In this document: piece after piece, positions 60,003-64,000 of the stretch
Layout: the number at the start of each line of letters is the position of its first letter
Position numbering within the stretch: the first letter of the stretch is position 1
NCBI GenBank assembly: GCA_022846095.1
Contig: AP025583.1
Location: forward strand, 3,123,279 to 3,187,278
DNA: 64,000 bases
Direction of reading: 5' to 3'
From: Oscillospiraceae bacterium
GTDB lineage: Bacteria > Bacillota > Clostridia > Oscillospirales > Oscillospiraceae
Position numbers and translations under genes: made by a program
Notes under the pieces: generated by a model
What the model was told of the DNA's origin: nothing
What the model saw: the letters and a program-made list of their open reading frames with translations, nothing else
The model's database searches: none

Positions 60003-61469
60003 ATGGACGAAATCACGAAGACTCAATGGAGGATTTTTCATCTTCTAACCTATAAGATTGTTACAGGAATATTCAGGACAGGTGAAAAGATGCTTTCACA
60101 GGCAGAAATCTGTAATTCCTATAAAGTCTCGGATCAGACTGCGCGAATCGTGCTTCAAATGCTGGAGGGGACAGGCATGGTAGAACGCTGCCGTGGCAGA
60201 GCCGCACGCGTAATTCATGACCCAGACTGCTGGACCTATAATGCTCAGCTTACCTATGTCCCCATGAACCTAGCGCATACGCGGGATATACTGTATACGG
60301 CCTGCCTAATCGTTCCCCCTTTTGTTACATTGGCGGTGAGAAAGTACAGCAGAGAACTACTTTTACAGTTAGATGAGATCCTAAAGGAGTTAAATGAATT
60401 GCTGGATGCCCCAATCCGTTTTTGGCGCACTAAGCAACGTTTTTGGCAGACCCTGGAGGCGCAGGCGGATAACTATTTTTATATGCAAGTACGTTATGCG
60501 CTTGGCCTTTTTGATTTCCGGCTACCGACAAATGAAATCCGGGAGAAGCAAATACTCTGGTTAAGGTTAATGCACAAGGCAATTCATAACAGGGACAGTT
60601 CCGTGTTTCAAGAGTTGGTAGGTCCCAATGATTATGCAGATTGGTATCAGGCGATTGGAAACCAACACTTTGAGGACATTCATGTGCCGAAACAATCCCC
60701 CTTGGTGCAGGGCGCCGGTGCAGTGCGGCAGCGCCTGCGGGATACAGAAAAGCGCTATCAGACGATTTATCTGGATATTATAAGTTGGCTTGCACTACGC
60801 GGAAGCTCGCGTGGTGAGCTGCTCCCACCCCACGAAGAGCTTGCCGCTATGTATGGGGTAAGCCACAACTCTACCGTCCCGGCACTCGGCATGTTACAGG
60901 AGCTTGGTGTCCTGAAGTCTATCCGCGGCAAGGGAACCTTTTTGCAAATGGATACTGACGACGTACGGCTTTTGCGTGTCAGCACGAACGAGGCGATACT
61001 GCGCGTACGGCGGCTCCTTGAGCAATTTCAATTTCTGGCCCTTACTACAGGGGTTGTAGCCAGTCATGCTATGGCATCGGTCTCCAAAGGGGAACTCGGT
61101 CAACTCAGAGATAGGATGGAGCAACACACGTTTCCTGGGCCGCAGGTCATCCATCTTGCACTGGAGTTACACAAATTTTTTACCCGGCATATCCAGCCAT
61201 CAGCACTACGTACAATCTTTGAGGTGCTGGAGGAGGAAATCCCAACGCGCATTGGTATGCCGGGGCTCCTGAATTATGACAGGGCCGTGTTAAATGCCTT
61301 GGAGGACGACTGCTGGAGTGTTCTCAAATATCTTGAAACCCAGGATTATGATTCTGCTGCCGCCCGCTTCCAGTCCTTCTACGAGGCGTGCTATAACCGG
61401 CTTATGTGCAATATTAAGCAAACGATTTACTGGGAGGCCACGCAGCAAATACCGGTTTATGTTTATTAA
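60003..61469 (+). CDS. GntR-family regulator with tandem duplicated (HTH + FCD-like) modules
   Basis: 488 aa with two GntR-type winged-HTH segments (~aa 30-75 LSQAEICNSYKVSDQTARIVLQMLEGTGMV, and ~aa 270-320 GELLPPHEELAAMYGVSHNSTVPALGMLQELGVLKSIRGKG). Each is followed by an alpha-helical domain. Lower-GC region. Confidence 0.65.
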   Translation: MDEITKTQWRIFHLLTYKIVTGIFRTGEKMLSQAEICNSYKVSDQTARIVLQMLEGTGMVERCRGRAARVIHDPDCWTYNAQLTYVPMNLAHTRDILYTACLIVPPFVTLAVRKYSRELLLQLDEILKELNELLDAPIRFWRTKQRFWQTLEAQADNYFYMQVRYALGLFDFRLPTNEIREKQILWLRLMHKAIHNRDSSVFQELVGPNDYADWYQAIGNQHFEDIHVPKQSPLVQGAGAVRQRLRDTEKRYQTIYLDIISWLALRGSSRGELLPPHEELAAMYGVSHNSTVPALGMLQELGVLKSIRGKGTFLQMDTDDVRLLRVSTNEAILRVRRLLEQFQFLALTTGVVASHAMASVSKGELGQLRDRMEQHTFPGPQVIHLALELHKFFTRHIQPSALRTIFEVLEEEIPTRIGMPGLLNYDRAVLNALEDDCWSVLKYLETQDYDSAAARFQSFYEACYNRLMCNIKQTIYWEATQQIPVYVY

Positions 61470-61510: not shown

Positions 61511-61558
61511 AAAAAACGCCAAAGCTAAGCCCCTCCGGAAAGAGGTACTTAGCTTTGA
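61511..61558. terminator. bidirectional rho-independent terminator
   Basis: Hairpin cgccaaagctaag...cttagctttgacg flanked by A6/T7 runs. Confidence 0.65.
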
Positions 61559-61801
61559 CGTTTTTTTGCTGATAAGGCTGGAATCTAATACACAATAGCC
61601 GTTACTGAGTCAAATGAAAATATTTTACCATATAAAGGTAAGATTGTTGGCTAACACTTACTTTACAGATGCAGATCTTATGTGCTACAATTCACTATAT
61701 ATACTAACTACTGCGGCATCGGCCATCAATTATCCTTCATGTTGCATACTGCCGTGGACCTACTGAAATAAAGCACAGTATGTACCTAAACTCTCAGCGC
61801 G

Positions 61802-61848
61802 GAAAAAAAGACGGGCATATCACCACACGGCGATATGCCCGTCTTTTT
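61802..61848. terminator. bidirectional rho-independent terminator immediately upstream of recombinase gene
   Basis: Perfect hairpin agacgggcatatc-accacacggc-gatatgcccgtct flanked by A7 and T6. Confidence 0.7.
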
Positions 61849-61974
61849 TCCCGCATTGTATGCAGGCCTCACAATTAAAGGTTGGTCGTAAAACATTTTT
61901 ATAAACGGCAGCTAAATGCACATAGTAAGAAGGTATAAAAATTACCAACTGAGAATGCTGGAGGAAACACGGCA

Positions 61975-62829
61975 ATGATGGAGACCAATACTTTAAGCAA
62001 AATTGAGGCATATGCGCAGTACTTGGTGCAGGAGGAGCGCAGCTGCGCTACGATTGAGAAATACCTGCGGGATGCGAAGGTCTTTCTAATCTGGCTTGGG
62101 GATCGTCCACTGGACAAGATGGCCATGCTGGGCTATAAGGAAACACTTATGGAGAAATACGCTGCCGTCAGCGTGAACTCCATGTTGGCTGCGGTGAACG
62201 GCTATCTCAAGTTCATCGGCCGGCCGGAGTGTACGGTGAAGAGCCTAAAAACTCAGCGCCGGCTGTTCTGCGCTAAAGAGCGTGAGCTGACCAAGGCGGA
62301 GTACCTGCGGCTGGTGGAAGCATCCAAACGCCAAGGGAACATGCGGCTGAGCATGGTCATGCAGGCTATCTGTTCCACGGGTATCCGGGTAAGCGAGTTG
62401 GAATTCATTACAGCGGACGCAGTGCAGACGGGCCGGGCTGAAGTGCGCTGCAAGGGCAAGCAGCGCACGGTGTTCCTGCCGCATCAACTCTGCCGCCAGC
62501 TTGCACAATACAAAAAGGAACAGGGGATCGTGGCGGGCCCGGTATTCGTTACAAAGGGTGGGCGGCCCTTGGACCGCAGCAATATTTGGGCAGAGATGAA
62601 ACGGCTGTGCAGGGAGGCAGGCGTGGCGGAAAGCAAAGTATTTCCTCATAATCTGCGCCACCTTTTCGCCCGGACTTTCTACGGTGTAGAAAAGGATATT
62701 ATCCAGCTGGCCGATCTTTTGGGCCACAGCAGCATTGAAACTACCCGTATCTATATGATCTCTACCGGAAGTGAGCATATGCAGAAGATTGATCGAATGG
62801 GGCTGGTACTCCAGTTCGGGGGAGCATAA
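61975..62829 (+). CDS. tyrosine-type site-specific recombinase (phage-integrase/Xer-like, small ~280 aa)
   Basis: Catalytic pentad context: R in ...STGIRVSEL..., H..LRH (PHNLRHLFA), and terminal ...IETTRIYM (catalytic Tyr). N-terminal SAM-like core-binding domain. GGAGGAAA ribosome-binding site. Confidence 0.85.
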   Translation: MMETNTLSKIEAYAQYLVQEERSCATIEKYLRDAKVFLIWLGDRPLDKMAMLGYKETLMEKYAAVSVNSMLAAVNGYLKFIGRPECTVKSLKTQRRLFCAKERELTKAEYLRLVEASKRQGNMRLSMVMQAICSTGIRVSELEFITADAVQTGRAEVRCKGKQRTVFLPHQLCRQLAQYKKEQGIVAGPVFVTKGGRPLDRSNIWAEMKRLCREAGVAESKVFPHNLRHLFARTFYGVEKDIIQLADLLGHSSIETTRIYMISTGSEHMQKIDRMGLVLQFGGA

Positions 62830-62889
62830 CAAAACCGCCCGGCAAAGCCAGACGGTCAACGCGTCAGGTATAGAAACGGGTACACCACA

Positions 62890-62908
62890 GAATCACTATT
62901 ATGTGGTA
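62890..62908. repeat. left inverted repeat (19 bp, GAATCACTATTATGTGGTA) of candidate invertible segment
   Basis: Exact reverse complement of 63179-63197. Lies 60 bp downstream of the recombinase stop. Confidence 0.85.
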
Positions 62909-63178
62909 TGACCGTCTTTTGTTACTCAGTTGACTGTCAATAATCCCCTGTGTACATACAGATAGTAGCACAATGCGACATTATTGGCAATAGGATTACT
63001 CAAAAAAACTCTAGGAATGGCATATGTTTTTTCCTGGATGCTGTTTTTATATCCTGTCGATGGAATATATTGTAAATTAAAACAAGCTGACATGCCCTTC
63101 CGCCATACCGGCGGAAGGGCTTTTGCTATTTTTATAGCGCTGGGTATCAGTCAAAAAATTAAGCCGACGATTTTTGCT
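62909..63178. other. 270-bp candidate invertible DNA switch (promoter + intrinsic terminator between perfect IRs)
   Basis: Bounded by 19-bp perfect inverted repeats. Contains a rightward TTGACT, 17-nt spacer, TACATA promoter-like element (62930-62958). Also contains a strong hairpin catgcccttccgcc-atac-cggcggaagggc with T-run (63091-63130). AT-rich relative to surroundings. Confidence 0.55.
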
Positions 63179-63197
63179 ACCACATAATAGTGATTCG
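63179..63197. repeat. right inverted repeat (TACCACATAATAGTGATTC) of candidate invertible segment
   Basis: Perfect reverse complement of 62890-62908. Confidence 0.85.
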
Positions 63198-63387
63198 GTT
63201 GTAATTGGATTTGGACTTAGGATTACAAAAATTGAATATTTAGCAAAGCCGATGAAAGTCGGCGACGCAAAACTACAGGGCCTTACGCCGAAGGCGTGTG
63301 GCAGCCAGCTGCACCTATAGACACGGCATAAGCGCGCCGTGCTTACGGGTGCTATTTTTCACTCATGTCAAGAAAGGACAAACGCTA

Positions 63388-63789
63388 TTGCAGATTAAAA
63401 GGTTGACGGAATATTCCATCCGCTTTCTGCTATACCTTGCCCGTCAGGAGGGAAATACAACGGTCCCCGGCGGAGAAATAGCGCAGCAAATGGGAATCGG
63501 AGCGGGCTATATCCGGCGGGTAACACACACGCTGTGCAGCGCCGGGCTGGTGGAATCTGAGCCGGGATTTCAGGGAGGGTTCTATCTGACTCGTTCGGCA
63601 GAGGAGATCACGCTATACGACGTCATGATGGCAGCAGAGGATACGATGGCGCTTAACCGGTGCCTACAGGACGAAAAATTCTGCGACCGAGGAGCTGCAC
63701 CGTACTGCAAGGTGCACCAATGCTTTATAGAGTTCCAGGGAGATATGGAAGCCCGGCTTAAGGCCGTGCGTCTCAGTGAGCTGGTTTAA
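63388..63789 (+). CDS. Rrf2-family transcriptional regulator (IscR/NsrR-like, with C-terminal Cys cluster)
   Basis: TTG start after AAAGGA. Rrf2 HTH (KRLTEYSIRFLLYLARQ ... GEIAQQMGIGAGYIRRVTHTLCSAGLVESEPGFQGGFYL). Cys-x6/7-C-x5-C candidate Fe-S ligands (CLQDEKFCDRGAAPYCKVHQC). Confidence 0.8.
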   Translation: MQIKRLTEYSIRFLLYLARQEGNTTVPGGEIAQQMGIGAGYIRRVTHTLCSAGLVESEPGFQGGFYLTRSAEEITLYDVMMAAEDTMALNRCLQDEKFCDRGAAPYCKVHQCFIEFQGDMEARLKAVRLSELV

Positions 63790-63850: not shown

Positions 63851-64000
63851 ATGAGAAGAGCGAGAAGTAACCGCCTTGTGGCGGTGGCGTTGACGGCGGT
63901 GTTGACAGTAAGCAGCGTGGGCTTGGCGCTTGGCCGGGAGACAGAGCGCGCCTATGATGCTCCTGAGCTGCTGCTGACTCAAGGGCAGGATGTCTATGAC
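63851..64000 (+). CDS. secreted protein (signal peptide), N-terminal fragment (runs off the window end)
   Basis: GGAGGA ribosome-binding site. MRRARSNRLVAVALTAVLTVSSVGLALG is a signal peptide. The ORF continues past position 64000. Confidence 0.6.
   Translation, partial: MRRARSNRLVAVALTAVLTVSSVGLALGRETERAYDAPELLLTQGQDVYD

Follow-up and report, generated by a model that had tools for sequence, protein, structure and literature searches.

A candidate self-contained phase-variation cassette with an invertible promoter segment before a c-di-GMP riboswitch in an Oscillospiraceae bacterium

What does a small tyrosine recombinase act on when a perfect inverted repeat stands directly behind its gene, and when genes for a regulator and a secreted protein follow the repeat? 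This question is raised by a stretch of 64,000 nucleotides (nt) from the 4.3-Mb genome of an Oscillospiraceae bacterium (assembly GCA_022846095.1, contig AP025583.1, positions 3,123,279 to 3,187,278), which is called the window hereafter and to which all coordinates refer. The initial annotation had proposed a switch in which the recombinase inverts a segment carrying a promoter and a terminator. On the basis of a detailed examination of the locus and a comparison with related loci in other genomes, we consider that the locus is very probably a self-contained phase-variation cassette, composed of the recombinase gene, an invertible promoter segment of 269 base pairs (bp) and a riboswitch for cyclic diguanylate (c-di-GMP) placed in series before an operon.

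The recombinase, the two sites and the enclosed segment

The recombinase gene lies on the plus strand (61975-62829) and has an intact reading frame for a protein of 284 amino acids (aa). This protein belongs to the tyrosine recombinase superfamily: it matches Phage_integrase of Pfam (PF00589; 86.7 bits against a cut-off of 27.1, E value 2e-24) as well as the SAM-like N-terminal domain Phage_int_SAM_1, and has the full set of R-K-H-R-H-Y active-site residues (R138, K160/K162, H225, R228, H251 and Y260), which do not vary across 25 homologues. Its top NCBIfam matches are XerA, XerC and XerD, each far under the cut-off (129.1 against 220, 105.8 against 335 and 104.9 against 330, respectively), and the protein stays under the cut-offs of all Xer equivalogs. 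The nearest structures are PDB 4a8e, which is annotated as a probable XerC-like recombinase, 1a0p (XerD), 5hxy (XerA) and 5jjv (XerH), and the name given by NCBI is 'integrase [Oscillospiraceae bacterium]'. The protein had been described as Xer/Fim-like, and the first half of this description is appropriate, whereas the second half is not, because the NCBIfam models of FimB/FimE-type DNA invertases gave scores far under their cut-offs (NF007370, 21.7 against 221; NF007371, 19.2 against 222). We presume that the recombinase is the invertase of the switch adjoining its gene.

The 19-mer GAATCACTATTATGTGGTA is present on the plus strand at 62890-62908, its first base being 61 bp past the stop codon of the recombinase gene, and its exact reverse complement is present at 63178-63196. 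The left copy had been located exactly and the right copy one base off (63179-63197); correspondingly, the enclosed segment (62909-63177) measures 269 bp and not 270 bp. The pair is the sole inverted pair of this sequence in the window even when 3 mismatches are tolerated, with no dispersed copies of the 19-mer, and none of 100 shuffled sequences contained a match. Similarity between the two copies widens to 25 nt at 92% (62884-62908 and 63178-63202), and these 25-nt stretches correspond to the left and right recombination sites. The left site (62884-62908) reads ACCACAGAAT-CACT-ATTATGTGGT(A), of which 62890-62908 is the exact 19-mer part, and the right site (63178-63202) reads (T)ACCACATAAT-AGTG-ATTCGGTTGT, with 63178-63196 as the exact part; the centre of the right site, AGTG, is the reverse complement of the left centre, CACT.

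The segment contains a predicted sigma-70-type promoter on the minus strand (TTGCCA-17-TACTAT with a TG extension; 62962-62990, read from 62990 to 62962), which was found by a promoter scan and reads leftward out through the left site at a distance of 53 nt. Its position and outward direction agree with the pattern of the cassette family explained below, and the promoter is kept in a sister lineage whose sequence is 85% identical, together with both terminators and the sites. Judging from this conservation, the minus-strand promoter is the predicted functional promoter of the switch, and since it faces the recombinase gene, the segment in the window is assigned to the OFF orientation. A different promoter, TTGACT-17-TACATA on the plus strand near 62930, had been pointed out previously; the sequence is indeed present, but it failed the consensus scan and its -35 box is not kept in the sister lineage, and we have rejected it as a functional promoter.

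The strong terminator hairpin reported within the segment was recovered by a terminator scan. This plus-strand intrinsic terminator (63094-63130; GCCCTTCCGCC...GGCGGAAGGGC) consists of a stem at 63094-63120 followed by a T run, and in the sister lineage its stem is kept and its loop is variable. Another intrinsic terminator, on the minus strand (62833-62857, read from 62857 to 62833), was found by the scan between the left site and the recombinase stop codon; it has 11 pairs followed by a T-rich tail, its stem is likewise kept in the sister lineage, and it would end OFF-oriented transcripts before they enter the recombinase gene in the antisense direction. The locus therefore has the features of an inverton, i.e., inverted repeats adjoining a recombinase gene and a predicted outward promoter in the enclosed segment. 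An imperfect palindrome, CTAGGAA-N13-TTCCTGG, is also found inside the segment (63011-63037), upstream of the -35 box of the minus-strand promoter; it is kept in the sister lineage and may be a regulator binding site.

A cassette family in Clostridia and the evidence for inversion

Relatives of the recombinase are counted in thousands (about 280 aa, 55-68% identity). Species-representative genomes yielded at least 594 recombinase loci in our scan, nearly all of them in Clostridia (Oscillospiraceae, Lachnospiraceae, Christensenellales and others), and 80 loci were fetched for comparison. Of the 80 loci, 60 have inverted repeats with an exact match over 13 nt or more, which start 0-130 bp past the recombinase gene and usually enclose 200-290 bp, and 13 further loci have at least the left site, followed by a contig end or by a degenerate partner. 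Each site of the family is a near-palindrome, ACCACATAAT-NNNN-ATTATGTGGT, with two 10-bp arms and a 4-nt centre. The core motif ACATAAT-N4-ATTATGT was found at or beside both segment ends in 57 of 61 loci, a few loci having extra tandem copies at the segment ends or, elsewhere, a weak match. The central 4-mers vary between loci and are mutually reverse-complementary wherever both sites pass the motif threshold, and no palindromic centre was found among these loci. Read in this manner, the family sites have the predicted anatomy of a tyrosine-recombinase core site, in which two binding arms flank an asymmetric crossover region that needs to match that of the partner. The left site of the window differs from the family consensus at one position, in the outer arm.

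An outward near-consensus sigma-70 promoter located 15-60 nt from one repeat is characteristic of the family: a score of at least 11.5 was obtained for 34 of 61 segments, whereas after shuffling it was reached by 3 of 1220. When the 61 loci were classified by the promoter direction, 40 were OFF (toward the 3' end of the recombinase gene), 8 were ON (toward the downstream gene) and 13 were ambiguous. In most loci, 20-200 bp separate the right site from the start of the first downstream gene, which is encoded on the same strand. The products of the downstream genes are varied but typical for phase-variable loci and rich in surface proteins. They include cohesin, BspA-type leucine-rich repeat, Listeria-Bacteroides repeat and S-layer homology proteins, SipW-type signal peptidases with camelysin-like proteins, a surface-polysaccharide acyltransferase and CpsB/CapC, and in addition methylases of restriction-modification systems, EAL and GGDEF proteins, a PilZ protein and small regulators.

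Several variations on the common layout were observed. Extra tandem recombination sites on one or both sides were found in ten loci, L056 (2+2), L040, L044, L063, L020, L045, L064, L060, L065 (3+1) and L122, and these could provide more than two DNA states or could be accessory binding sites. In many loci (e.g., L025, L029, L075 and L081) a run of A directly precedes the palindromic left site, which on the minus strand gives a site hairpin followed by a U run; such a left site may itself serve as a terminator for the OFF-oriented promoter. Several cassettes with different centres (CAGC, TCGT and AGAA) are present in one metagenome-assembled genome, JAZTXF01 (L026, L029 and L038), and L022 is a further example. 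The differing centres fit the view that cassettes of the same genome would be kept from recombining with each other.

Both orientations occur in the family, as is evident from the 8 ON and 40 OFF loci and most directly from a pair of independent assemblies, L059 and L070, in which collinear flanks (97.6% identity) enclose a 293-bp switch region that is inverted in one relative to the other (91.8% identity). Other homologous segments were also found in opposite orientation relative to the recombinase gene (L040/L075, L036/L085 and L028/L060), and these pairs agree with the promoter-based calls of ON and OFF. Furthermore, many contigs of the family stop just past the recombinase gene, those of L034, L043, L047, L057 and L122 exactly at the inner edge of a site. 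A de Bruijn graph branches at the edge of the site when a sample holds both orientations. At the window locus itself, one contig (L109, from SRR18191191) terminates at the last base of the left repeat.

Comparison with the sister lineage gives another type of evidence. There the left centre is GTCT instead of CACT and the right centre is AGAC instead of AGTG, which corresponds to two mirrored substitutions, and the chance of such matched changes was estimated at about 0.0025. This covariation argues that, since the two lineages split, the sites may have been under selection for recombination or may have been homogenised by recombination. The proposal of a recombinase-controlled invertible switch is supported in most respects by the family cassette, the outward promoter, the inversion between L059 and L070 and the matched changes of the centres.

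Several observations weigh against a switch that is active in this organism. The inverted orientation was found in none of about 37 assembled contigs of the locus, which represent two lineages and many samples and are all OFF, assemblies reporting the majority orientation only. Because of this uniformity, we infer continued inversion of the window copy only from the co-varying centres and from the end of L109. Further contigs, both of the locus and the sister lineage (P0002, P0122 and P0125) and of other family members (P0098 and P0029), also had one orientation per species. The right site has 3 mismatches to the family consensus, all in its outer arm (3 of 10 positions), and with this arm degenerate the copy may invert slowly or with bias. 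The minus-strand promoter has a score of 10.5, which is below the best of the family. The family has probably been catalogued already as inverton group 139 of the hCom2 community, judging from its size, taxonomy and recombinase linkage. The junction of the inverted state at this locus would be CCACAGAATCACTATTATGTGGTA joined to GCAAAAATCG. Scans of Joint Genome Institute metagenomes with the junction CCACAGAATSWCTATTATGTGGTAGCAAA and with the left site alone gave no match; the organism is absent from that collection and the scans are uninformative on orientation. A break inside the segment in L116 (3503-3547) and at the end of L117, located at the same base, was considered as a rearrangement and rejected as an assembly artefact, since L116 continues into a Nextera adapter.

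The uniform OFF orientation and the outer-arm mismatches (one in the left site and three in the right) are what would be expected of a true member of the family in which inversion has ceased, the segment being fixed in OFF and the operon being silent or driven in some other way. We regard such a fossil or locked switch as unlikely, because the recombinase has an uninterrupted reading frame and every catalytic residue, both lineages have a perfect 19-bp core, and the two centres have changed in step after the lineages split. Conservation likewise extends to the promoter, the riboswitch and the two terminators, L109 ends exactly at the repeat edge, and a majority of OFF is normal in reference assemblies of the family (40 against 8).

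Much less probable is that the repeats are the ends of a mobile element, i.e., attachment sites of an integrase or terminal inverted repeats of a small non-autonomous element. The cassette stands before unrelated cargo in different genomes and several copies per genome are possible, which indicates that it has moved over evolutionary time, and a sequence like the start of the segment occurs upstream of the recombinase gene (61803-61823). The sites, however, come without exception as inverted pairs, within about 200-290 bp of each other and immediately 3' of the gene, with no more copies in the window; the interior holds an outward promoter and no gene, the neighbours are metabolic and regulatory genes rather than phage or conjugation genes, and in L059 and L070 only the interior flips between collinear flanks. 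As for a housekeeping Xer recombinase with an inverted repeat nearby by chance, the top family and structure matches (XerA, XerC and XerD) and the dif-like site layout, as generally known for Xer systems, would be in its favour, but this explanation is effectively refuted by the scores far under the equivalog cut-offs, by the absence of the repeat from all shuffled sequences and by the occurrence of the same repeat-plus-gene arrangement in 60 of 80 genomes. An invertible cassette with its own recombinase is thus the reading that we adopt in the following.

Group 139 was described in a study of a defined gut community (Microbiome 2025, PMC11892184) and consists of 33 invertons, 32 of them from Clostridia, in 17 strains, with repeats of 14-26 bp and interiors of about 205-227 bp. 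Nearly every one of these invertons adjoins a tyrosine-type recombinase (invertase group 35), which lies beyond the control of the inverton promoter, and sequence reads show shifts of orientation in culture, e.g., in Clostridium sp. D5 and Intestinimonas butyriciproducens (PMC11892184). The group and the present family agree in size, taxonomy and gene layout, on which the comparison was made, the repeat motif of the group being given in figures only. The initial annotation had regarded the combination of recombinase and repeats as undescribed for this gene set, and this view needs to be revised to the extent that the same cassette family has probably been catalogued in that community. The paper gives no site anatomy, promoter model of the group or riboswitch, and the present organism is outside the community that it treats (PMC11892184).

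The riboswitch, the proposed operon and the upstream region

The stretch that separates the right site from the first gene of the proposed operon contains an element that had not been reported previously, namely the aptamer of a c-di-GMP-I riboswitch (Rfam RF01051) on the plus strand at 63232-63316. The match is full-length (model positions 1-87; 53.4 bits against a gathering score of 35, E value 5e-9), the counterpart in the sister lineage has 52.1 bits, and ligand binding is predicted from the sequence. Directly abutting the aptamer is a terminator-type expression platform on the same strand, with a stem at 63311-63352 and a U tract at 63353-63359 according to ViennaRNA folds, and its sequence is kept in the sister lineage. 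Folding of partial transcripts gave an alternative pairing of 63273-63280 with 63314-63320, which could act as an antiterminator, and this gives a weak hint that c-di-GMP could be repressive. In other members of the family no such riboswitch was found, either in 15 loci searched with Rfam or in 60 loci searched with a regular expression.

The Rrf2 regulator and the signal-peptide protein that had been noted downstream are both present. The Rrf2-family gene (63388-63789, plus strand) is the first gene of the proposed operon, and the same gene call was obtained from independent contigs. It starts with TTG and encodes a protein of 133 aa with a Cys-rich C-terminal part, which matches Pfam PF02082 (100.7 bits against 30, E value 9.5e-29) and NCBIfam rrf2_super TIGR00738 (94.7 against 73.3) and stays under the NCBIfam cut-offs of all named equivalogs (IscR, NsrR, CymR and RirA). 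From 63851 on the same strand, the translation gives the start of a giant secreted or surface protein with a signal peptide, whose gene runs off the window at 64000 and whose length in related contigs is 3145 aa (L091) and 3208 aa (L102). Apart from a weak Ig-like match, no usable Pfam or NCBIfam family was found for this protein, and the first 1662 aa of L091 match none.

Near the start of the giant gene there is a 24-nt tandem repeat of about 17 copies, which encodes 8 aa per copy rich in Pro, Ala, Thr and Glu (L001:12100-12507 and L091:8111-8302). The repeat in L001 is equivalent to about 64074 onward, just past the end of the window, and Gly-rich repeats are found deeper in the gene. Because of the 24-nt repeat, most short-read contigs of the locus break 260-410 bp into the giant gene.

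The mechanism that we propose is as follows. The recombinase would bind the arms of the sites, bring the two sites into synapsis and exchange strands across the matching centres, by which the segment would be flipped, this recombinase being the presumed enzyme and the exact points of cleavage putative. The outward sigma-70 promoter lies close to one end of the segment, and an intrinsic terminator lies close to the opposite end. In the OFF state, the promoter would aim at the 3' end of the recombinase gene and its transcripts would be halted by the minus-strand terminator, while the plus-strand terminator would end transcripts of the recombinase gene and so shield the downstream operon from read-through. 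In the ON state, transcription from the promoter would proceed rightward, crossing the right site and the riboswitch with its platform (63232-63359), into the operon of Rrf2 and the giant protein, the transcript starting about 45 nt inside the segment. A scan of the stretch between the right site and the Rrf2 gene detected no plus-strand promoter, and this result, together with the order of the elements, implies that the ON transcript would cross the right site and then meet the riboswitch. With the promoter upstream of the riboswitch, expression of the operon would need both the ON state of the DNA switch and a permissive level of c-di-GMP.

The region upstream of the recombinase gene had been described as an orphan stretch flanked by terminators (61560-61850), and the flanking hairpins are indeed found, at 61511-61566 and 61799-61854. 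The latter is a bidirectional terminator hairpin whose sequence is similar to the stretch running from the inner end of the left site into the segment (62892-62923), with 21 nt at 86% complementarity or, taken as a direct repeat, 29 nt at 72%; this resemblance could be a chance event or a relic of the arrival of the cassette. The stretch between the hairpins (61566-61799) contains a promoter-like site at 61662-61691 (TTTACA-18-TACAAT) and an open reading frame of 50 aa, gave no match to Rfam families, and may be a small RNA or a remnant. The part at 61708-61799 has no counterpart in the sister lineage, where about 520 bp stand instead. Farther upstream, a gene for a 488-aa protein with two GntR-type winged-helix domains (60003-61469) is the sole upstream neighbour kept with the cassette in both lineages; the genes beyond it differ, being a TRAP transporter and IclR in the window and a transposase, TetR and Imm17 in the sister lineage.

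Relation to known switches and biological meaning

The well-known fimS switch of Escherichia coli is an invertible segment of about 300 bp with an outward sigma-70 promoter for a surface structure and an adjacent tyrosine recombinase gene; it is served by two recombinases, FimB and FimE, and its sites are 9-bp repeats with flanking half-sites. The locus in the window is similar in having a recombinase gene beside a segment of about 300 bp with an outward promoter, and in both systems the orientation could feed back on the transcript of the recombinase gene. The differences are that the window has one recombinase instead of two, that this recombinase is outside the FimB/FimE family, as the NF007370 score given above indicates, and that the sites of the window are near-palindromic with 10-bp arms. 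The single-recombinase Xer systems (XerA, XerH and XerS) are the nearest relatives in sequence and structure, and their core site also has two inverted arms and a short centre, presumably bound by one protein species. In contrast to these systems, the present recombinase is under all Xer equivalog cut-offs, two inverted sites lie 269 bp apart beside the gene instead of one dif site at the terminus, and the outcome would be inversion, which we assume for the window copy, and not dimer resolution.

Switches controlled by RecV in Clostridioides difficile (cmrRST, flgB, cwpV and pdcB) were compared with the present locus by layout. These are also cases in Clostridia in which inversion by a tyrosine recombinase controls surface or signalling genes, but in C. 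difficile many switches share a single unlinked recombinase, whereas here each switch has an adjacent dedicated recombinase. At cmrRST and flgB, an inversion switch and a c-di-GMP riboswitch are combined in one leader, and the cmr switch has a promoter in the ON orientation (PMC8844915). In both leaders the riboswitch is located upstream of the switch, and the two inputs at cmrRST are thus independent (PMC8844915). The order in the window is the reverse, with the invertible promoter upstream of the riboswitch, so that the two elements act in series; the riboswitch is of class I here and at flgB, and of class II at cmrRST. The likeness to fimS and to the RecV switches that had been suggested for this locus holds for the type of switch, while membership in the FimB/FimE family does not hold, and the riboswitch order and the recombinase linkage differ from those of RecV.

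The cassette family is widespread in Clostridia and mechanistically undescribed, and the series link to a riboswitch is unusual. A broader view, which we put forward tentatively and with slightly more doubt than conviction, is that the cassette may be a portable phase-variation module that has spread across hundreds of Clostridia species before diverse cargo, with the 4-nt centre as an address that prevents cross-reaction, and that in the present organism it may form a gate combining DNA inversion and c-di-GMP by AND logic before an iron-sulfur (Fe-S)-type Rrf2 regulator and a surface protein of about 3100-3200 aa. If this is true, the Rrf2 protein could render a whole regulon phase-variable. 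Natural variants of the sites and recombinases could also supply orthogonal small recombinases for the engineering of anaerobes.

Much less has been charted of phase variation in gut Firmicutes than of that in Bacteroides or C. difficile. The present family now has an explicit grammar of sites (arms of 10 bp around a centre of 4 nt) together with a promoter model, and ON and OFF can be called from sequence only, by which heterogeneity of surface proteins in Oscillospiraceae and Lachnospiraceae becomes testable in read data. For the organism studied here, the series order of promoter and riboswitch predicts that a stochastic input and a signalling input would be joined by AND logic.

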